From IMG/VR virus record IMGVR_UViG_3300042348_000330, positions 1 through 28,424 of that record: DNA of 28,424 nucleotides. The stretch is one strand, 5' to 3'. The notes beneath the pieces are model-generated. The model was not told where the DNA came from, searched no databases, and saw nothing but the letters and a program-made list of their open reading frames with translations. The DNA is from a virus. Taxonomy: Duplodnaviria; Caudoviricetes. This document shows positions 3,055-18,275 of the stretch, piece by piece (position 1 is the first letter of the stretch; every line of letters begins with the position of its first letter). A program made the translations under genes and the position numbers.

Positions 3055-4917
3055 ATGCCATCACCATCACGTTATTACAGCTCCACAGCTGCAAAGACTA
3101 CGCTTGCTAGCGCAGTCGATTCAGGTAGCGCAAGCATTCAGCTTGCTGCACCATCAGGTCTTCCTTCACAGTATCCGTATACTCTTATTCTTGAGAAGGA
3201 TACGGCTAACGAAGAACTCGTCCAAGTAACTGGCGTTACTGGTTCCTCTTACGCTGTAACACGCGGTATTGATGGAAGCACAGCCAAGGCTCACTCAGTA
3301 GGTGCAACCGTAGAACACGGTGTATCTGCTCGTGACTACACAGACTCTCGTGCTCACGAAGCAGCGTCATCTGCACACAACGTCACTGGCGATATCGTCG
3401 GTACTGGCGGTACTCAAACTCTTACTGGTAAGACGCTAACCACAGCAACACTTGGTTCTGCTCTTGATGCTGGTAACTTTAAGATTACTAATCTTGCTAC
3501 ACCAACATCATCTTCTGATGCGGTACGTAAAGACTTTGCTGATGCTCAGGTAGCAGCAGCTTCTACATCAGCAGCATCTGCTGCACTCAGCGCCTCAAGC
3601 GCTGCAGCAAGTGCAACGACCGCTTCTAACTCTGCTGCTACTGCAACATCAAGTGCAGCCACAGCAGTGTCATCAGCAGCTACTGCGGTTTCATCCGCAG
3701 CAACTGCAGTAAGCAGTGCTGCAACAGCGGTTACATCAGCAGCTCAGGCAGCAACCTCTGCATCAAGTGCTGCAACGTCTGCAGCCTCTGCATTGACCAG
3801 CCAGAGTTCAGCAGCAACCAGTGCATCATCTGCATTAACAAGTGCCACGTCTGCTGCAGCTTCTGCTACAACAGCAGCAGCGTCAGTTGCTGCAATCTCA
3901 GCATTCGCAACTACTGCAAGTAACTCTGCAGCAACAGCAACTACTTCAGCAGCACAGGCTGCAACATCCGCAACCAGTGCAGCAACTTCGGCATCTAGTG
4001 CAGCAGCATCATTCGTATCAGTAACTGGTCTAACTGGTTCTGGTATCTTGCGTGACCTTGGTTCAATTACAGATACCGACACAACAACTACAACGTATTT
4101 AAACGTAGCAACATTGACAGCGTCTGCACAGACAAGTGCAACCGCTGCTGCTACAAGTGCGGCATCTGCACTCGCATCTCAAACATCAGCTAGTGCTAGC
4201 GCAACCACTGCTTTAAATAGTGCAGCGACTGCAACTACATCTGCTGCTCAGGCAGCAACTAGTGCCACATCTGCAGCCACCTCTGCTACCGCAGCAGCTA
4301 CCAGCGCAAACAGCGCAGCAGTTTCTGCAACAGCTGCAGCGACTAGTGCAACTAGCGCAGCAGCGTCAGCAACCACAGCACTTAACTCAGCTGCTACCGC
4401 TACAACATCTGCAAGTCAGGCTGCTACATCTGCTACCTCTGCTGCTACTTCAGCAACATCGGCAGCAGCATCAGCTACTGCAGCAGCAGCAAGTCTTGAT
4501 AGCTTTGATGACAGATACCTTGGCTCTCAGGGAACAGCACCAACGTTGGACAATGATGGTAACGCACTTCTTGAAGGAGCGCTTTACTGGAACTCAACCA
4601 ACAAGAACATGAACGTTTACAACGGAACCGCGTGGGAAGTTGTAACAACATCTGGTGATATCACTGCAGTTACTGCAGGAACTGGTATCTCTGGCGGTGG
4701 TGGTTCTGGTGCGGTCACGATTACAAACGCAATGGCTACAGCAATGACAGCCAAGGGCGACATCATTGTCGCAACTGGAAGCGGAACATTTGTTTCTCAG
4801 GCAGTTGGAACCAATGGTCAATTCTTACAAGCAGATAGCACACAGGCAGATGGTGTTAAGTGGTCCAACGTAGTAACAGACCCAATACCAGATGTACTAA
4901 TGATGATGGGAGCATAA
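3055..4917 (+). CDS. Tail fibre protein with a long Ala/Ser/Thr-rich coiled-coil stalk, 620 aa
   Basis: Contains GTQTLTGKTL, KITNLATPT...DAVRKDF, DSFDDRYLG...DNDGNAL..GALYWN, GDITAVTAGTG and AKGDIIV...GTNGQFLQADS fibre motifs. Confidence 0.8.
   Translation: MPSPSRYYSSTAAKTTLASAVDSGSASIQLAAPSGLPSQYPYTLILEKDTANEELVQVTGVTGSSYAVTRGIDGSTAKAHSVGATVEHGVSARDYTDSRAHEAASSAHNVTGDIVGTGGTQTLTGKTLTTATLGSALDAGNFKITNLATPTSSSDAVRKDFADAQVAAASTSAASAALSASSAAASATTASNSAATATSSAATAVSSAATAVSSAATAVSSAATAVTSAAQAATSASSAATSAASALTSQSSAATSASSALTSATSAAASATTAAASVAAISAFATTASNSAATATTSAAQAATSATSAATSASSAAASFVSVTGLTGSGILRDLGSITDTDTTTTTYLNVATLTASAQTSATAAATSAASALASQTSASASATTALNSAATATTSAAQAATSATSAATSATAAATSANSAAVSATAAATSATSAAASATTALNSAATATTSASQAATSATSAATSATSAAASATAAAASLDSFDDRYLGSQGTAPTLDNDGNALLEGALYWNSTNKNMNVYNGTAWEVVTTSGDITAVTAGTGISGGGGSGAVTITNAMATAMTAKGDIIVATGSGTFVSQAVGTNGQFLQADSTQADGVKWSNVVTDPIPDVLMMMGA
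3550..4495 (+). repeat. Low-complexity Ala/Ser/Thr heptad-like repeats (e.g. SSAATAV) in two blocks
   Basis: Protein-level 7-residue periodicity with synonymous-codon diversity, interrupted at ~4010-4120 by FVSVTGLTGSGILRDLGSITDTD. Confidence 0.85.
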
Positions 4918-5463: not shown

Positions 5464-6060
5464 ATGGCTATCAGTAGATTCGCTGCTTCAAGGTTGACCC
5501 AAGGTCTGCCTAAATATCAAAGTGCATGGGACCAAGACGGTGTCCAACAGGGTGCGATGGTTCCTATTATTTCCAGAACTCAAACAGTAGATGAAAATAA
5601 TTATGTTATTTCAAACATTCCTCAAGTTTATCAAGACTTAAGAATCGTAATTGTTGCAAGAGGAAGCGATACTGCTGCAATAAACCTTTACACAATCTAC
5701 CCAAATGGAACGCTGACTGGATGTAGTAGAACTACAATCCAGGGAGATGGCGCTACGCCATCTTCGTATCGGCATACAACATCTTCGCCAACTTATGGAA
5801 TTCAATGTTTAGTTCCAGGTGGTGGAAATACAACCAACTACTGGGGCATTCAAGTTGTTGATATTTTAAATTATGCTAGCACATCTGCAAAGGTTGCAAT
5901 AAGTAGAGTTGGTTCAGATTATAACGGCGCAGGCGGTGCAGAACTGACGGTTACTAATATTGCTAACAGTGCTGCGATTACACATATTAGTTTATCTGGA
6001 ACAGCAAACTTAAAAGCGGGTACATCTGTGTCTGTTTATGGAATTAAGGCAGGAGTATAA
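5464..6060 (+). CDS. Paralogous tail/receptor-binding module protein A, 198 aa
   Basis: Family motifs NIPQVYQDL, DILNY, YGIK; N-terminus MAISRF...WDQD..QQGAMVPI. Confidence 0.7.
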   Translation: MAISRFAASRLTQGLPKYQSAWDQDGVQQGAMVPIISRTQTVDENNYVISNIPQVYQDLRIVIVARGSDTAAINLYTIYPNGTLTGCSRTTIQGDGATPSSYRHTTSSPTYGIQCLVPGGGNTTNYWGIQVVDILNYASTSAKVAISRVGSDYNGAGGAELTVTNIANSAAITHISLSGTANLKAGTSVSVYGIKAGV

Positions 6061-6062
6061 AT

Positions 6063-6572
6063 ATGATGAGATGGATTGCAAGCCAAACATTTCCAAGTGG
6101 TGGCTCTGGAACATTTGTACAATTTACAAATATTCCACAGGAATATGACCATCTTCAATTTAGAATCTATAGCCGTTCAGGTAATACTGGTGCTGCTGGT
6201 GGTATTTATATGGCTGGAAACTCATATCACATCACATGGGGAAATGGTACAACTACTGGTCAGTCATCTTGGGGTTCTGTAACAAACTCAATTATGGATG
6301 GTATTGGTAACAGCTCTACCGCTGGAACATTTAATGGTTTTATTTTAGACATATTTGATTATAGTAAAACAACAAAAGGAAAAACATTTAAATGGGTTGG
6401 TGGCTGGGATGCTAATGGTTCTGGCTTTGCTGAAGTTGGCAGTGGTGGTCTTACATCAACGGCTGCTGTAACAAGCTGGTTCTTTGATACTGGAGCACCA
6501 AATTATTTTACTCAAGGAAGTCGATTTGATTTATACGGCATCACATCTAACCCAGTAGCGACAGGAGCTTAG
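6063..6572 (+). CDS. Paralogous tail module protein B, 169 aa
   Basis: FTNIPQEYDHLQFR, ILDIFDYS.T.K.KT, GWDANGSG; ends GSRFDLYGITSNPVATGA. Confidence 0.7.
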   Translation: MMRWIASQTFPSGGSGTFVQFTNIPQEYDHLQFRIYSRSGNTGAAGGIYMAGNSYHITWGNGTTTGQSSWGSVTNSIMDGIGNSSTAGTFNGFILDIFDYSKTTKGKTFKWVGGWDANGSGFAEVGSGGLTSTAAVTSWFFDTGAPNYFTQGSRFDLYGITSNPVATGA

Positions 6573-6573
6573 T

Positions 6574-7104
6574 ATGCCAAAAGGTATGTTACCTATATAC
6601 ACACAAACAGTTACCGCTGCAGGTGGGGTTGCTTCAATCACGTTCAACAATATTCCACAAACATTTACAGACCTTGTTATTATGCCATCTTTTCGGGCTA
6701 CGCTAAACGGCGGTGTTGTTGTTACAAATGTTAATCTAATAATTAATGGTGATACAACATCAACACCTTATTCTATAACTGGCTTCGGTGGTAACGGAAG
6801 CTCAACATATTCTGAAAGAGCAGCAACCCAAAATACACTAAGACTTGGTTTTCTTGTCAGTAGTTTAGGAACTGCAAATTATTTTGCAACCAATACAATA
6901 ACAGTTGGTGACTACACTTCAACTAAAGTAAAACCATGGGTTGCCGAAACTTGCACAGAAAACAATGGAACTGCAAACTGGACTGGACTCTATTCTGGCG
7001 CTTATAGAAACCCTGCTCCTATTACACAAATCGCTTTTACAAGCGATGCTGGAAATATTGCACAAAATTCTACGGTAACTCTTTACGGAATTGGAAAAGC
7101 ATAA
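6574..7104 (+). CDS. Paralogous tail module protein C, 176 aa
   Basis: MPKGMLPIYTQTV, FNNIPQTFTDL, ENN, YRNPAPI, TLYGI. Confidence 0.7.
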   Translation: MPKGMLPIYTQTVTAAGGVASITFNNIPQTFTDLVIMPSFRATLNGGVVVTNVNLIINGDTTSTPYSITGFGGNGSSTYSERAATQNTLRLGFLVSSLGTANYFATNTITVGDYTSTKVKPWVAETCTENNGTANWTGLYSGAYRNPAPITQIAFTSDAGNIAQNSTVTLYGIGKA

Positions 7105-7676
7105 TGGCAATTAGACGATTCTCAATAGCAGAACCAGGTGTAAAGTCCAACAAGTTTTGGGACCAGGATACTCAACAAGGTGCAATGGTTCCCATTGGTC
7201 ATGTAATTGCTAACGGCAATAACTCCAATATGAACTTTCTTAACATACCAAATCACTATCGTGATTTGGTTTTAGTTATTAATGCTACATCAAATAGTGC
7301 ACATAGCGGTGCAATTATTTTTAATTACGCAAGTTTTGGTACTTACTCTGCTACGTTCTTGAGAGGCAACGGTTCTTCTGCTTTAAGCACGAGAGTAACA
7401 TCATCTGGTGCTGGACCATTACTTTCAAACGTTACTTATGGTCAAACGATTCCAACGTCAAGTGTTATACATATACAAAATTATGCAAACACTTCTGGGT
7501 TTAAAACTTATCTCGGAAGAAATGCTGCCGACGTTAATGGTTCTGGAGAAACACAAATGATTGCTGGACTATGGCAAAAGACGGAAGCTATATATGAAAT
7601 ACTTTTATCTAGTGGAAGTGGTTCTATATTTTGGTCTGGAACCGCAACCCTATACGGTATTAAGGCAGGCGCTTAA
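7104..7676 (+). CDS. Paralogous tail module protein A', 190 aa
   Basis: MAIRRF...WDQDTQQGAMVPI, NIPNHYRDL; ends YGIKAGA. Confidence 0.7.
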   Translation: MAIRRFSIAEPGVKSNKFWDQDTQQGAMVPIGHVIANGNNSNMNFLNIPNHYRDLVLVINATSNSAHSGAIIFNYASFGTYSATFLRGNGSSALSTRVTSSGAGPLLSNVTYGQTIPTSSVIHIQNYANTSGFKTYLGRNAADVNGSGETQMIAGLWQKTEAIYEILLSSGSGSIFWSGTATLYGIKAGA

Positions 7677-8216
7677 ATGACAATGCATCATATCGCAGGT
7701 ATAACAGCAACAGCTGGGCAAAGTAATATAAACTTTTCATCATTACCACAAAACTTTACACATATTCAAGTTAGAATTAGTGGAAGAAGCGCAAACACTT
7801 CTGGTTCTTTTGGTAGTGTTTACAGTGGTTTTAATGGCGAAGTTTTTACAGGAACAAGTTATACACATCATAATGTTTCAGGTGAAGGTTCTTCAACAGC
7901 CGTACTTGCACAAGCATCACAAGGTCAATTAAACATAGGAGGCGGGTTCTTTCCTTGGAGCACAATTCTTGCGAATGTTCAAGCTTCTTTGATAATTGAC
8001 ATACTTGACTACTCAAGTACGTCAAAAAATAAAACAATAAAATATATTATGGGTTGGGATGCCAATGGTTCTGGAAGAGCCATGTTTGGCTCAGGGATGC
8101 GGATGAACACTGCTGCAATAAATGAAATATATTTTAGTCCTGACGCTGGATTTACAGCGGGTTCTCGTCTTGATGTATACGGTATTACCAACAACCCAAT
8201 AGCGATGGGAGCCTAA
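7677..8216 (+). CDS. Paralogous tail module protein B', 179 aa
   Basis: FSSLPQNFTHIQVR, IIDILDYS.T.K.KT, GWDANGSG; ends GSRLDVYGITNNPIAMGA. Confidence 0.7.
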   Translation: MTMHHIAGITATAGQSNINFSSLPQNFTHIQVRISGRSANTSGSFGSVYSGFNGEVFTGTSYTHHNVSGEGSSTAVLAQASQGQLNIGGGFFPWSTILANVQASLIIDILDYSSTSKNKTIKYIMGWDANGSGRAMFGSGMRMNTAAINEIYFSPDAGFTAGSRLDVYGITNNPIAMGA

Positions 8217-8218
8217 CC

Positions 8219-8746
8219 ATGCCTAAAGGTATGCAAGCAATTTACAGCCAAGTTGTTGGAGTAAATGGAGTAGGCAATGCAGCTGCTATATTCTATAACA
8301 TTCCCCAGACATATACTGATTTAAAAATTGTTGTGTCGCAAAGGAACACTAGTAGCAACGTTGCGGAAAATCTTGCAGTTAGATTTGATGACGCTAATGC
8401 ACTTTATTCACATACGACTTTATATGGAAGTGGCGCTGGCGTTGCAACGTCAAGAAGCTCTAACTCTGCTTTTATTTCCTATACTGCTGGAATGTTTATT
8501 AACGGTAATAATTCAACAGCTAATACATACGGAACATTTGAATTATATATCCCAAATTATACAAGCAATTTATTTAAACAATGTTTAATAGATGCAGTAA
8601 CTGAAAACAATGCAACCGAAGCTTATGCTTCGTTTACTAGTGTTTTATATCGCAACCAGGCGCCAATAAGAACTGTATATGTTCAAGGATATTCAGCAGG
8701 AATGGCAAACGGAACTACAATAACAATTTACGGCATCAGCCGTTAA
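8219..8746 (+). CDS. Paralogous tail module protein C', 175 aa
   Basis: MPKGMQAIYSQVV, FYNIPQTYTDL, ENN, YRNQAPI, TIYGI. Confidence 0.7.
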   Translation: MPKGMQAIYSQVVGVNGVGNAAAIFYNIPQTYTDLKIVVSQRNTSSNVAENLAVRFDDANALYSHTTLYGSGAGVATSRSSNSAFISYTAGMFINGNNSTANTYGTFELYIPNYTSNLFKQCLIDAVTENNATEAYASFTSVLYRNQAPIRTVYVQGYSAGMANGTTITIYGISR

Positions 8747-11834: not shown

Positions 11835-12052
11835 TGGAAGAGAACAAGTTAATACCACTGGTATCACCAGGTGAACGAAGTGAGTTGGTCGATAAGGTTC
11901 GGCTAGCTCTTAATGTTGCTGGAGATGATGTGCTTGATGCTCCCCTTGCCGAGTTGCTAAGAGGGTTGCAGCATCAACTTTCCATCCCAGCAGTCGGGTG
12001 CATCAATATAGCCACGCTGGATGCGCTCGCAGTTGCTCCACCAGAATGGTAG
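11834..12052 (+). CDS. Stand-alone peptidoglycan-binding-like (PGBD) three-helix protein, 72 aa
   Basis: L..GE.SE.V..V..AL....D.V.D......LRGLQ..L.I...G.I...TL.AL follows PGBD spacing, but is degenerate. Confidence 0.5.
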   Translation: MEENKLIPLVSPGERSELVDKVRLALNVAGDDVLDAPLAELLRGLQHQLSIPAVGCINIATLDALAVAPPEW

Positions 12053-12056
12053 GGCT

Positions 12057-12098
12057 AAAAGGAGAGGGGGACTTAATTGTCCCCCTCTTTTTTTATTT
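12057..12098 (+). terminator. Intrinsic terminator ending the late operon
   Basis: AGAGGGGGAC-TTAATT-GTCCCCCTCT followed by a T run; a second hairpin GGCTTGCC-ATCA-GGCAAGCC lies at 12113-12132. Confidence 0.85.
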
Positions 12099-12185: not shown

Positions 12186-12230
12186 GTGTCTTATGACACA
12201 AGAAAGGAATACGCTGGTATGATTTACGGT
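12186..12230 (+). promoter_or_regulatory. Probable promoter for a leaderless transcript starting at ATG 12231
   Basis: Extended -10 TGgTATGAT (12215-12223) lies 7 nt before the ATG, which has no RBS. Palindrome GTGTC-TTAT-GACAC (12186-12199) sits at the -35 position. Confidence 0.6.
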
Positions 12231-12428
12231 ATGAATAAACTTCCTCCGCATCGGTCTTACAGTCAGCTAACAACCTGGCAATCCTGCCCTCAGAAATACT
12301 ACTTGAGTAAGGTTGCCATGGTACCAGAGAAACCCGCAGTATATCTAGCAGCTGGCTCAGCTGTTCACTCTATGTTGGAATGGTTGAACCATGAGTTCTA
12401 CAAGCAGCAACAACAGCAATCTAATTGA
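12231..12428 (+). CDS. Cas4/RecB-like PD-(D/E)XK nuclease, N-terminal fragment, 65 aa
   Basis: HRSYSQLTTWQSCPQKYYL...GSAVHSMLE is the typical N-terminus of this family (S.S.L...CP..Y, G..VH..LE). Confidence 0.8.
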   Translation: MNKLPPHRSYSQLTTWQSCPQKYYLSKVAMVPEKPAVYLAAGSAVHSMLEWLNHEFYKQQQQQSN

Positions 12429-12639
12429 CCAGCGGGGAATCCCCAGCAATGAATGTGTGAACTGTGGTTCAAACATTCAGATAATCAGAGCCATCTTCCA
12501 AGACTATGACTTGGTCATGTGGTTCACCGATTCTTTCTGTGCCACATGTGGCTCACCTATGACAACACCCACACCAGTAGACCATCCAGACTACGTGAAA
12601 CCAGAACACCCAGAGGAAGAAGACGATGAGTTTAACTGA
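12391..12639 (+). CDS. Small Zn-ribbon protein (CxxC...CxxC), 82 aa
   Basis: CVNCGS...CATCGS with an acidic tail; overlaps both nuclease fragments. Confidence 0.7.
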   Translation: MSSTSSNNSNLIDQRGIPSNECVNCGSNIQIIRAIFQDYDLVMWFTDSFCATCGSPMTTPTPVDHPDYVKPEHPEEEDDEFN

Positions 12640-13294
12640 GAAGTGGCTTGAGGTTTTTAATGACGAAGTTAGAAGTGTCGAAGAGCAAACAGGAATCCCA
12701 TCGACAGAGTGGAAGACAGCAGGTCGCAAGACTGCTGCTCGTCCAGATGGCGAGGACTTAGCTTTTTGGCAGAGCGATGGGCTCAAGCAGGTAGAGGCAT
12801 ACCAGAAATGGATGTTGCAATCTGGTTGGCAAATCGCTACTATGCCTGATGGTCGTCCTGGAATCGAGTGGTCTGCAGATGTGCATTTCGGAGGCACACC
12901 TGTAAGATTTATCATCGACGCGGTATATCAAGTAGGGGAAGACTTGGTTATCGTTGACTACAAAACAGGTTCCAGGACGCCATTCGGTGTAATCCAGAAT
13001 GGCTTATATGCCAGCGGTATTGAAAAGATTTACGGCATCCGTCCTAAGTGGGGCGCATTCTTTATGACACGCCAAGGCGAGCTTGGTGATTTAATTGACT
13101 TAACCCACCTAAGTATTGAATACTATGAACATGCATTCAGCTCTATGAACCACTCAGTATTGCAAGGTTACTTCCCAACATTTGTTGGTGAGAATTGCAA
13201 GATGTGTTCGTTCGTTGATAAGTGTCCAGCATGGGGCAGCAAAGATTTCCCGCTACAAATTCCAACAACAGGGAAAGAAAAGGAGAGAAAGTAG
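12626..13294 (+). CDS. Cas4/RecB-like PD-(D/E)XK nuclease, catalytic C-terminal fragment, 222 aa
   Basis: IID...IVDYKTG, Q..LY and C-terminal CKMCSFVDKC; own GAGGA RBS. Confidence 0.85.
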   Translation: MSLTEKWLEVFNDEVRSVEEQTGIPSTEWKTAGRKTAARPDGEDLAFWQSDGLKQVEAYQKWMLQSGWQIATMPDGRPGIEWSADVHFGGTPVRFIIDAVYQVGEDLVIVDYKTGSRTPFGVIQNGLYASGIEKIYGIRPKWGAFFMTRQGELGDLIDLTHLSIEYYEHAFSSMNHSVLQGYFPTFVGENCKMCSFVDKCPAWGSKDFPLQIPTTGKEKERK

Positions 13295-13756
13295 ATGACT
13301 GAATCTATGTTCTCGTATACAGGAAAGCTAAACGGCAATGACTTGTTTACCGTCCGAGGTAACAGCGTTGCTGAATTCAAGGCAAACCTAAACGCAGCAA
13401 TCGAGGTAATCTCTGATGCTGCTGGTCTGCAAACTATGTTGCTTAATCGCACAACTGGTGGTGCATACGCACCAAACATGGAGCAAGCAATCGCTGGTCT
13501 ACAAGCAGCTGGTCTGAACCCGCAGCCTGTAACTACAACACCTCAAGCGATTGAGGTTGTTAAAGATAAGTATGGTAACGAGTGGACATATGGACATCCA
13601 GATGCGCCAGACCTACCAGACGGACGTGGCAAGTACGCCAAGAAGAAGGGCGTATCAAAAGCAGGTAAGGCTTATGTTGGTTGGTTCGACCCAGCCAAGG
13701 GACCGAAGCCTTTCTCACCAGGTGCTGTAGAAGCAGAAACAATCTGGACTAAGTAA
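13295..13756 (+). CDS. Conserved replication-module protein (possible ssDNA-binding or recombination partner), 153 aa
   Basis: AAGGAG RBS; lies between nuclease and helicase; C-terminal KKGVSKAGKAYVGWF motif. Function inferred. Confidence 0.5.
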   Translation: MTESMFSYTGKLNGNDLFTVRGNSVAEFKANLNAAIEVISDAAGLQTMLLNRTTGGAYAPNMEQAIAGLQAAGLNPQPVTTTPQAIEVVKDKYGNEWTYGHPDAPDLPDGRGKYAKKKGVSKAGKAYVGWFDPAKGPKPFSPGAVEAETIWTK

Positions 13757-14589
13757 TGCGTAGCCTATTGCAAGTAGTGGGTGTCGAGTCACCAGCTGGT
13801 CATCAACTACCAGAAATCCTACCTCAACTCACCGCCAGTCAGGTGGTCTTTCGTCAAGCGCAATTGCATTTGATTGCAGGACAACCAGGCGGAGGTAAGA
13901 CACTACTTGCATTATGGTACGCAATCACTTCTAAAGTTCCATCCTTGTACATATCAGCAGACTCTGATTCACGTACCATCGCTACTCGCGCTGGTGCAAT
14001 CATTATGAATAGAGATGTTGCTGATGTTGAAAGACTGATGGATACCGAAGCAAGTGTTCTCCTTGAGGATGCACTAGCAGAAGGTGCCAGCCATGTACGA
14101 TTCGCCTTCGACCCAGCACCTTCTCTTCAAGATGTTGAAGAGGAGATTGAAGCGTGGATTGAATTACATGGCTCGGCTCCTGCTGCTGTGTATGTAGATA
14201 ACTTAATGAACGTAGCCTCCGCTAGTGATAACGAGTGGACTGCACTACGTGATGCCATGTCAGCGTTTCACTACATGGCACGTGAATATGAATCGGCTTT
14301 CATCGTCCTACACCACGTATCCGAGAATGAAAAGATGTCTAAGCCAAACTACCCAGCACCACGTAAAGCGTTGATGGGTAAGGTAGCAGCACTACCAGAG
14401 TTGGTCCTTTCGGTGGCTCTGGATAGTGCTTCTAATAGTTATCGCGTTGCTGTTGTTAAGAACCGACATGGCAAGGCAGACCCAACCGCAGAGAGTTACG
14501 TATCTCTAGCAGCAGAGGCAAGCAAGATGGTTCTCTATAACTCACCAGCTGAATTGTTCCGCGCCAGAACAATGAGTCAATGGCAATGA
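13756..14589 (+). CDS. DnaB/RecA-like replicative helicase (ATPase domain), 277 aa
   Basis: Walker A AGQPGGGKT, Walker B VYVDNL, LHH, and VKNRHG (DnaB motif H4). Confidence 0.85.
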   Translation: MRSLLQVVGVESPAGHQLPEILPQLTASQVVFRQAQLHLIAGQPGGGKTLLALWYAITSKVPSLYISADSDSRTIATRAGAIIMNRDVADVERLMDTEASVLLEDALAEGASHVRFAFDPAPSLQDVEEEIEAWIELHGSAPAAVYVDNLMNVASASDNEWTALRDAMSAFHYMAREYESAFIVLHHVSENEKMSKPNYPAPRKALMGKVAALPELVLSVALDSASNSYRVAVVKNRHGKADPTAESYVSLAAEASKMVLYNSPAELFRARTMSQWQ

Positions 14590-16174: not shown

Positions 16175-16507
16175 ATGAATCAGCCTGAGTTTCTAGAAGC
16201 AGTCTTTAATCATTACGGATTGACCTTGCCACTTGGTGGGGAGAAATCAATCCTGTGTCCTGTACATGATGACTCACGTAAGTCTGCTTCGGTGAACTCA
16301 GACAAGGGCGTCTGGGTATGTTATGCATGTAACGCAAGTGGTTCTGGTATACAGATAATCATGGCACGTGAAAAGCTAACATACCCAGAGGCTCGTTCAT
16401 GGGCGGAGAAGAACATTGGCAAGGAAGCTAAGTCATCTACTCCTACACGTGGACGTAAGAAGGGCAGCGGTAGGTGGACACCACCTAGATTGAGAGCTGC
16501 ACTATGA
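16175..16507 (+). CDS. DNA primase zinc-binding (CHC2) domain as a separate ORF, 110 aa
   Basis: CPVHDDSRKSASVN...WVCYAC...G. Confidence 0.88.
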   Translation: MNQPEFLEAVFNHYGLTLPLGGEKSILCPVHDDSRKSASVNSDKGVWVCYACNASGSGIQIIMAREKLTYPEARSWAEKNIGKEAKSSTPTRGRKKGSGRWTPPRLRAAL

Positions 16508-17034
16508 CAACCATTATTGGTATTCAGCAAGACAACGGCTGCATTCTCGCAGCCGACTCACGTACCACAGCAGGTGGTAGACCATTCTCGCATCCGATAG
16601 TTACTAAGATAACTAAACGTGGCAAGTGGCTGGTCGCAGGTGCAGGTGATGTGCAACCATGTGATGTAATCCAACACGTGTGGAAACCACCAGCAATCCC
16701 AGCCAATACCAAAGACGAGTATCATTTTATGATTACAACCGTAGTACCTAGCATGAGAGAGTGCATCAAGGAGTCTGGGTATAGCCCAAGCAAAGATGAC
16801 GAGGATGCTGGGTTTGAATTTTTATTAGCAATCAATGGAACCATCTACCAAGTAGATGATAACTATTCTGTATACCTACGTGACGATGGTCTGTATGGCG
16901 TAGGGTCTGGTTCATCATGGGCTCTTGGTGCGCTAGCGGGTGGGGCAACATGGAAGCAAGCAATGCAGATTGCTGCTCGTAATGATGTGTATACTGCACC
17001 TCCGTTTATTACACACAGACAGGAGAAGAAGTGA
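16504..17034 (+). CDS. Ntn-hydrolase, HslV/proteasome beta-subunit-like protease, 176 aa
   Basis: MTTIIGI (N-terminal Thr), AADSRTT, KI, AG.G, GSGS..ALG, D..T. Confidence 0.82.
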   Translation: MTTIIGIQQDNGCILAADSRTTAGGRPFSHPIVTKITKRGKWLVAGAGDVQPCDVIQHVWKPPAIPANTKDEYHFMITTVVPSMRECIKESGYSPSKDDEDAGFEFLLAINGTIYQVDDNYSVYLRDDGLYGVGSGSSWALGALAGGATWKQAMQIAARNDVYTAPPFITHRQEKK

Positions 17035-17678
17035 GAACCAATCCGAAACTCATTGAACTCTGGACAAAGGCAGCACATACATATCACGATTCATTAGCTG
17101 GCTCACCAGCTGAGGCATACCTTGAGAAGCGTGGCATCCTAGATGGCGCCCAACAATTTCTGTTGGGCTATGTAGTAGAGCCTGCTGCTGGTCACGAGGA
17201 CAGACTCAAGCACCACCTATCTATTCCGTACATCACCGAGGCTGGTGTTGTTGGGTTTAAGTTCCGTCGCATTGATGATGGTGACCCTAAGTACATGATA
17301 CCTACTGGTCAGAAGCATCACCTGTATAACGTAGGCGCAATACTTCATGCAGTAAGGGAGGTGTTAATTGTTGAAGGAGAGATTGATGCTATTTCTGCAA
17401 CTCTTGCTGGTCATCCTGCTGTCGCTGTCGCTGGCGTTAACGCTTGGAAGCCTTATTTCTCACGTTGTTTCGATGGTATAGGCAGAGTAGTAATTGCTAC
17501 AGATAACGATGTTAAAGAGGATGGCTCTAACCCAGGGCAGGACTTAGCTCGTAGATTGCAGGATGCAATCCCGCAGTCTATGCGCGTGTCGCTACCGCCT
17601 GACTCTGATATTAATAGTATAATTGTAGACCAAGGAGCTCAAGCATTAACCGCATTGATTAATGCGTTAGACAATTAG
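17031..17678 (+). CDS. DNA primase catalytic/TOPRIM domain, 215 aa
   Basis: YL..RGI, IPY, FKFR, PKY, IVEGEID, DND...G, D.N. Confidence 0.88.
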   Translation: MRTNPKLIELWTKAAHTYHDSLAGSPAEAYLEKRGILDGAQQFLLGYVVEPAAGHEDRLKHHLSIPYITEAGVVGFKFRRIDDGDPKYMIPTGQKHHLYNVGAILHAVREVLIVEGEIDAISATLAGHPAVAVAGVNAWKPYFSRCFDGIGRVVIATDNDVKEDGSNPGQDLARRLQDAIPQSMRVSLPPDSDINSIIVDQGAQALTALINALDN

Positions 17679-17689
17679 AAGGGGCTCCG

Positions 17690-18007
17690 TTGGCAACCAG
17701 TAAACTAACCATCGATAATTTCCAAGAAGACGCACAGGAAATATACGACCAGCTTCTGTCTATCTTAGTGATGAAGCAAATCGATTACGGTCCACTCAAT
17801 ATCTGGAATGCACCTGGTGGTGCAACCAATGGGTTGATGGTTCGTATGTCAGATAAGTTAGAACGATTAAAGAATTTAATCTACAACTCTATTGAACCAA
17901 ACAACGAGGCGCTTGAAGATAGCTTCATTGACATAGCCAACTACGCAATCATTGCGTTGATGGTAGAGCGAGGCATCTGGGAGAAGTATGCCACGCAACA
18001 GAAATAA
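17690..18007 (+). CDS. DUF1599 / nucleotide-modification-associated (MazG-like all-alpha) protein, 105 aa
   Basis: K..DYG, G..VRMSDK..RL.NL, E.LEDS..D.ANY.II. Confidence 0.75.
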   Translation: MATSKLTIDNFQEDAQEIYDQLLSILVMKQIDYGPLNIWNAPGGATNGLMVRMSDKLERLKNLIYNSIEPNNEALEDSFIDIANYAIIALMVERGIWEKYATQQK

Positions 18008-18275
18008 AACTTACGAAGAGCAACGTGTGTCTCGCATTCGGTCTTACGGTATTAGTGTTGAAGACTACGAACGCATGTTCGCCGAACAGAATGGAGCTTG
18101 CTACATTTGTGGCGAAGCTCCCACCACGAGAGCGCTCGACATTGACCATTGTCATAAGAGTGGCAAGGTACGAGGACTGCTTTGCAGTAACCATAATCGC
18201 GCCCTTGGTTTGTTAGGCGATGACCCTGACCTGTTGCTTAAGTCAATTGAATACTTGGTGAAGTCGCATGACTGA
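17988..18275 (+). CDS. Endonuclease VII-like (His-Me finger) protein, 95 aa
   Basis: YGIS..DY..M...Q.G.C.IC, DIDHCH..GKVRGLLC..HN..LG. Confidence 0.88.
   Translation: MPRNRNKTYEEQRVSRIRSYGISVEDYERMFAEQNGACYICGEAPTTRALDIDHCHKSGKVRGLLCSNHNRALGLLGDDPDLLLKSIEYLVKSHD

Follow-up and report, generated by a model that had tools for sequence, protein, structure and literature searches.

A Cas4/AddB-type nuclease is encoded by two genes, N and C, in the window analyzed here, a 28,424-base virus record taken at its full length. It is probable that the two products make up one enzyme and that a third gene, Z, is a lodger between them. The split is a natural, old, and selected two-gene form of this nuclease, as seen directly in its anatomy, its conservation, the selection on it, and the architectures of its relatives. 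The features of the region are as follows.

12056..12095, + strand: intrinsic-terminator-like hairpin (17-bp stem, T-rich tail; consensus match only) that closes the region of virion genes, ahead of the replication operon
12215..12223, + strand: TG-n-TATGAT, which resembles an extended −10 box, 7 nt ahead of the N ATG; the start of a leaderless transcript is predicted here
12231..12428, + strand: N piece of the nuclease, 65 aa from its ATG, with HRSYS, GSAVH, and a variable C-terminal tail; Cys19 is predicted to be an Fe-S ligand and His46, in GSAVH, a metal ligand
12391..12639, + strand: Z, CxxC/CxxC zinc-ribbon-like, 82 aa with a core of ~50 aa, no named family (ORF list, profile searches)
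12612..12617, + strand: Shine-Dalgarno-like AGAGGA, 8 nt before the C start
12626..13294, + strand: C piece of the nuclease, 222 aa, with E81, D98, D111-Y-K113, Q124-x3-Y128, and C191/C194/C200
13295..13756, + strand: neighbor gene without a family match in Pfam or PHROGs searches; its position suggests a ssDNA-binding protein
13756..14589, + strand: DnaB-like helicase/ATPase of the replication/recombination operon (phrog_243, E = 1.7e-74)

N, Z, and C lie in three successive frames, with overlaps of 38 nt (N/Z) and 14 nt (Z/C); the stop-to-stop reading frame of N opens at 12021. An earlier note on this DNA had placed the N-terminal motifs and the catalytic D..DYK and CxxC motifs on separate ORFs of 65 and 222 aa, with an 82-aa CxxC/CxxC ORF between them that overlaps both. 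The ORF list and coordinates, together with matches to known profiles, bear this out. N covers positions 3-51 of Pfam PF12705 and C covers positions 87-247, both above the cut-off, and phrog_1870 is tiled by N (12-69) and C (74-306) with almost nothing missing. The Fe-S nuclease signature is complete over the two ORFs, with Cys19 in N and C191, C194, and C200 in C, all invariant. The RecB motifs (His, E, D, D-x-K) and QxxxY are likewise present, H46 being located in N and E81, D98, D111, K113, Q124, and Y128 in C. A typical PF12705 nuclease has all these motifs on one polypeptide; here there are two ORFs in different frames. As the note had also claimed, deleting the interval restores no fusion: when 12390 is joined to 12626 in the sequence, N stops 14 nt into C.

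The pieces share their Cys pattern, RecB motifs, QxxxY, and predicted fold with the "iron staple" PD-(D/E)XK nucleases Cas4, AddB, and AdnA (PF12705, phrog_1870; AdnA, 9np6/6ppr; ACE1, 9iab), and mycobacteriophage "Cas4 exonuclease" homologues are ~32% identical. Cluster ligands in the Cas4 family are described as one N-terminal and three C-terminal Cys residues (sections of PMC12094033, PMC4176176, and PMC12538437), and His62 of SSO0001 binds the catalytic metal (PMC4176176, in part). Reference iron-staple nucleases are single chains (PurpleHaze gp76 is one ORF), whereas here the cluster ligands and a predicted metal-binding His are spread over two genes. The claim that the Fe-S ligands sit on separate chains can be refined, with N carrying the invariant His46 in addition to one Cys. 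We predict His46 to be a metal ligand because of its spacing and a 2.9-bit stretch in the alignment of Cys19/His46 with AdnA, which is weak.

Both pieces were present in 77 of the close loci, the best 80 of 172 viral loci found with C, and Z lies between them in 77/77; the other three are cut by contig ends. A second locus search added 29 new, more distant loci (L152-L180) from its best 80, and 28 of these carry N, Z, and C as separate ORFs, the remaining one being truncated. The split described in the note from a single sequence is therefore shared by close and distant relatives. The 93 database homologues of C range down to 36% identity and are mostly 217-239 aa long. Between the window and 60 distinct close loci, the median dN/dS values of N, Z, and C were 0.015, 0.04, and 0.095, as calculated from unsaturated pairs alone (21, 18, and 49, respectively); synonymous sites are saturated in N and Z (median pS of 0.74). 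Purifying selection acts on N, Z, and C and, by dN/dS, is strongest on N. Eight residues are invariant in 36 N pieces (H7, S9, S11, C19, L25, G42, H46, and E50), as are the catalytic, QxxxY, and Cys columns of 40 C proteins. All scored motifs are kept in 24/24 split pairs, including the four Cys and His46, and in 3/3 proteins of swapped order (see below). No spare intact copy of the nuclease was found in 5/5 near-complete relatives, where the two pieces are the sole family matches. Across split pairs, the identity of N rises and falls with that of C (rho of 0.58 over 276 non-independent pairs), and the two genes lie within about 1 kb of each other in every complete locus.

The same break was detected in other lineages, with and without genes in the gap. 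Of 35 loci from one search (L229-L263), 33 have both pieces, with one to four genes between them, and a Z-like gene in 32. In another search, both pieces were present in 21 of 22 loci, and Z in 0/21; N and C are adjacent or overlapping in 19 of these pairs and separated by one unrelated gene in 2. A further 81 loci comprised 62 intact single ORFs, 15 split, and 4 partial forms. The cultured lytic Planktophila phages E7 and F5 (OX376640 and OX376641; L286:2811-3588 and L287; PMC10202952) also carry the split nuclease, as a 61-aa N and a 202-aa C that overlap by 17 nt with no gene between; next come a small gene and then DnaB, an order shared with the window. ORFs were listed for E7 and the junction DNA was read in both; the records are without annotation. 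N and C are thus separated by a normal boundary between genes, at which other genes are gained and lost. Just before C, loci L229-L263 hold a conserved, helical-looking gene of 63-79 aa that starts with MGRKHAKII, even in L253, which lacks Z. Some database proteins were set aside. P0080 (274 aa) was ruled out as a fusion, its extension being without N motifs, and "C-only" proteins known without a locus were not accepted as split forms (P0187 and P0314 cluster with full-length proteins, and P0253 begins inside an N motif).

Z has four Cys that are invariant in 38 homologues, in which nothing else is invariant. PHROGs and Pfam searches, including those with the 38 homologues, gave sub-threshold Zn-ribbon matches alone, and tblastn found no match to Z in GenBank phages; leads in the protein Atlas are unnamed clusters or DUF7479. 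The note had suggested a possible three-subunit complex. In a complex of this kind, Z would bind the N/C pair, cap the opened loop, or regulate the nuclease and hence stay in the gap. Such an enzyme would explain why Z lies in the gap in 77/77, 28/29, and 32/33 loci of two lineages far apart from each other, clade I and a part of clade II (both defined below), whose C pieces are ~33-45% alike, and why Z is under strong selection and overlaps both nuclease pieces. However, Z is missing from 21/21 split pairs and from E7 and F5, and it was absent from 5/5 split records without a gap Z that were searched whole (3 of them at least 90% complete; positive controls found, 3/3). L253 lacks Z in the gap although nested among Z-bearing loci, L240 and L255 have other genes between N and Z, and homologues of Z lie downstream of DnaB in five loci with an intact nuclease and in the split L302. 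These observations weaken the three-subunit reading, which we consider unlikely. When the complex of C, N, and 4Fe-4S was predicted with Z as the scored partner, the score was 0.00 twice, to which we give no weight either way. Because Z also occurs elsewhere, next to intact nucleases, and several split genomes lack it, Z is likely a free-standing, probably zinc-binding protein of the replication module that lodges in the gap and is not a required subunit. Z may nevertheless have an accessory role, since it has long been in the gap in two lineages and a clade uniting them is not rejected (p-AU of 0.14).

Signals for separate starts were then compared across relatives. The motif TANNNT lies 6-7 nt before the N ATG in 56/56 distinct close regions (shuffled mean of 7.6, maximum of 18) and is kept although the surrounding sequence varies; a two-hexamer promoter scan missed this box. 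Since the motif has this spacing and follows just after the terminator-like hairpin, we predict that the ATG at 12231 is the leaderless mRNA start of the replication operon. The AGAGGA before C has an anti-SD pairing energy of −5.9 kcal/mol (relatives' median of −6.0), a modest signal, as 8.5% of background windows reach it. The start codon of Z is ATG in 49/56 close regions and GTG in 7/56, and stops in the distant loci overlap the next start in the usual coupled manner. The N stop is set by an Ile codon of Z at 12424-12428, which is ATT in 56/56 regions compared with 64/277 of the other Z Ile codons, and selection appears to fix the end of N.

The invariant ATT could also be counted in favor of recoding, that is, a single chain obtained when the interval is spliced out of the RNA, bypassed by ribosomes, or crossed by two frameshifts. 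So could the N-to-C distance, which is 2 mod 3 in 77/77 close loci, and the ATGAGTT with which both Z and C begin. This repeat, pointed out in the note, is real in the window, but the two 7-mers are identical in just 17/56 distinct close regions. That count rules out a maintained target duplication; the repeat is possibly an old relic. The start of C is shifted by three codons in 10/56 close regions and is still ATG. Among distant loci, the frame offset between N and C differs (0 or 2 in clade I; 0, 1, or 2 elsewhere), and the gap ranges from an overlap to >700 nt with different genes inside, which argues against gene 60-type bypass or a programmed frameshift. A self-splicing intron is disfavored by the lack of any Rfam family at threshold, the saturated synonymous sites, and an RNA folding z-score of −0.86. 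An RNA-library contig covers 12183-12589 without a gap, and no contig joint skipping Z was found in the four RNA runs compared, out of six with matching contigs, although this evidence is weak, as the contigs may not be transcripts and uncovered parts are uninformative. A split intein was rejected as well: the Pfam scan showed no intein domain, and the pieces abut in phrog_1870 with tails of ~10 aa or less. The note had ranked splicing and bypass as less likely, and with varying frames, no Rfam intron, and no skip in RNA-library contigs, we regard a recoded single chain as very improbable.

A slightly less probable alternative still is that the pieces work apart, with C alone acting as a cluster-less nuclease and N having some other role. 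Some Cas4 proteins do cut without a cluster (PMC4176176, in part), which would allow this. Against it, split pairs without exception retain the four Cys and His46, N is the most conserved ORF and stays within ~1 kb of C in all complete loci, and N and C are re-fused in the permuted proteins described below. The weakest alternative, a pseudogene or assembly chimera, is negligible given the dN/dS values of 0.015-0.095, the many independent assemblies, and the same break in two cultured phages. In its favor, L079 has a stop inside C, and in L034 upstream-like sequence takes the place of the first N codons (each 1/80 close loci and probably an assembly error).

Among the best 150 of the 50%-representative proteins matching P0092, 123 have the normal order, 24 are C-only, and 3 have a swapped order, beginning where C begins and ending with the N module. 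The clusters of these permutants have 14 members from several sources (P0092), 3 members (P0152), and 1 member (P0143). No genomic locus of a permutant was found in viral scans (split relatives alone), metagenome scans (one unrelated locus), or genome scans. A search for longer N-bearing proteins returned six of 114-138 aa, which look N-like with upstream extensions; it missed the known permutants and is thus insensitive. In the model of the intact relative P0150 (pLDDT of 96.5), the break falls in the loop at 60-66, between helices 39-59 and 67-88. The model of the permutant P0092 (pLDDT of 96.0) has helices and strands as in P0150, with the N module at the end. The closest fold matches of both models are AdnA and ACE1. 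A RecB-like fold is accordingly found in these models, which are of relatives of the window pieces, and is predicted for the split nuclease.

On trees of the C domain, locus-verified split forms make up three well-supported clades, I (window), II, and III (E7), among intact forms; the split L302, L344, and L364/L367 fall outside these clades, and the deep branches are weak. A single clade of I, II, and III was narrowly rejected (p-AU of 0.037), on a quick tree and with the grouping set after the tree was seen. The permutants as one clade (p-AU of 0.52) and the permutants together with clade I (p-AU of 0.40) were not rejected. Repeated fission of the nuclease gene is likely, and one fission with later re-fusions is possible. 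The intact P0154 is sister to the C-only group P0093/P0121/P0122 with full support, all known from proteins alone, and their separation is possibly a recent independent fission.

For separate translation, assembly, cluster, activity, and substrate, we infer the following scheme. N would be translated from a leaderless mRNA, and Z and C by coupled initiation. N would supply one Fe-S Cys and the metal-binding His, and C would supply three Cys, the catalytic acids, and the lysine. The two chains would fold together, share a 4Fe-4S cluster, and complete the active site; the cut falls in a loop that connects two helices in the predicted fold of the intact enzyme. Because two archaeal Cas4 proteins do not need their cluster to cleave (PMC4176176, in part), helix packing may hold the chains together as much as the cluster does. 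By analogy with AdnA, AddB, and ACE1, the enzyme may act on DNA ends by threading the 5' single strand and cutting it, serving phage recombination and replication beside the DnaB-like helicase. After fission, the junction would have become a gene boundary, where Z settled as a module gene. The central idea of the note, a naturally split enzyme assembled in trans, has good support in the conservation of both pieces, the selection on them, the absence of an intact copy, the variable cargo, and permutants at the same site, all of which are read from sequences. More tentatively, and with some doubt, we suggest that the cluster and active site of this staple nuclease are completed only upon the meeting of two separately made chains, that its loop has been opened repeatedly, that the split was a stepping stone to the permutants, and that the split may be a control point, with leaderless N, cluster supply, or Z timing assembly.

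The setting of the nuclease is a replication operon in a phage genome. A profile scan of the window identified genes for capsid, terminase, WhiB, a sigma-like protein, a glycosyltransferase, and replication, and lake and freshwater metagenomes hold DNA that is near-identical to it. WhiB is described as an indicator of actinophages (PMC10202952, in part), and because the window carries a WhiB gene, an actinobacterial host is likely. The close relatives of the window are 41-42 kb in size; therefore, the window is a partial genome. A homologue of the 13295..13756 gene lies beside the nuclease in 23/29 distant clade-I loci, and a DnaB-like gene is near the nuclease in 29/29, 31/35, and 23/24 loci of three locus sets. 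No cas genes (including cas1/cas2) and no Argonaute were found among the 22 ORFs scanned in this partial genome. A CRISPR-associated Cas4 is disfavored, as these 22 ORFs gave no cas1/cas2 hit, PF01930 is below the cut-off, and the neighbors are DnaB-like and family-less genes.

The primase in the window is likewise two genes, a CHC2 zinc finger (16175-16507) and a Toprim (17031-17678), with a proteasome-subunit-like gene between them. In clade-I relatives, the CHC2/Toprim gap is 530-2056 nt with variable content; in most other lineages, the two abut or overlap. Two replication genes of this operon are therefore split and house lodgers, those of the nuclease and the primase. A free-standing endonuclease VII gene is located at 17988-18275, and in L303 (4861-5226) a gene resembling endonuclease VII directly follows an intact nuclease. 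It is speculation that genes of this type might have made the original cut in the nuclease. Elsewhere in the window are six tandem, paralogous-looking tail or receptor genes of 170-200 aa in two or three alternating types (5464-8746) and a tail-fibre-like protein with long Ala/Ser/Thr repeats (3055-4917).

Phage enzymes in pieces have been described before. In phage Aeh1, nrdA-a/mobE/nrdA-b are "genes in pieces", presented in the accessible text as one case (PMC3045599). Like that essential enzyme, the nuclease is split with active-site residues on two chains (here predicted), a separate gene in the gap reaches into the second piece, and no splicing is seen. In contrast to mobE, a homing endonuclease, Z has no nuclease match (38 homologues); the Aeh1 tails are essential, whereas here the N tail and the C start are short and variable; and unlike the Aeh1 split as described in these parts, the nuclease break is found repeatedly, in several lineages whose gap may be empty or filled, and again in the circular permutants. 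The topoisomerase genes 39/60 of T4 are likewise a phage enzyme gene divided by an insert (10.1101/2022.08.31.505936, in part), but compared with what that source gives for gene 60 bypass, the nuclease has no matched take-off/landing codon plus stop, no fixed gap, and no structured RNA. Inteins have been reported in actinophage Cas4 at another site (10.1101/2025.01.02.630785, in part), and the terms "split" and "permut" do not occur in the available portion of a Cas4 phylogenomics paper (PMC5704561). No description of a split or permutation of this nuclease was found in the literature searched, which lay mostly outside subscription journals.

Fission followed by fusion is a model of circular permutation. 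Intact, split, and swapped-order nucleases share one break point, as this model has it; what differs here is that all three occur in one phage family. The permutants may descend from split forms (clade I plus permutants not rejected, p-AU of 0.40). The N gene, at 61-70 aa, is easily missed by annotation, and C then looks like a truncated three-Cys protein. Each of Cas4, AddB, AdnA, Dna2, and Exo5 is described as one chain that its cluster staples; a natural two-chain form would show that neither the staple nor the catalytic site has to be built within one chain. Conditional Cas4-type nucleases could be engineered at this break, a split point provided by nature. Since E7 and F5 are cultured phages of the dominant freshwater Actinobacteria, the split form is testable in culture. 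As the intact, split, and permuted nucleases all share a single site, circular permutation by way of fission and fusion becomes testable, and, if true, one family shows permutation by fission and re-fusion in nature.
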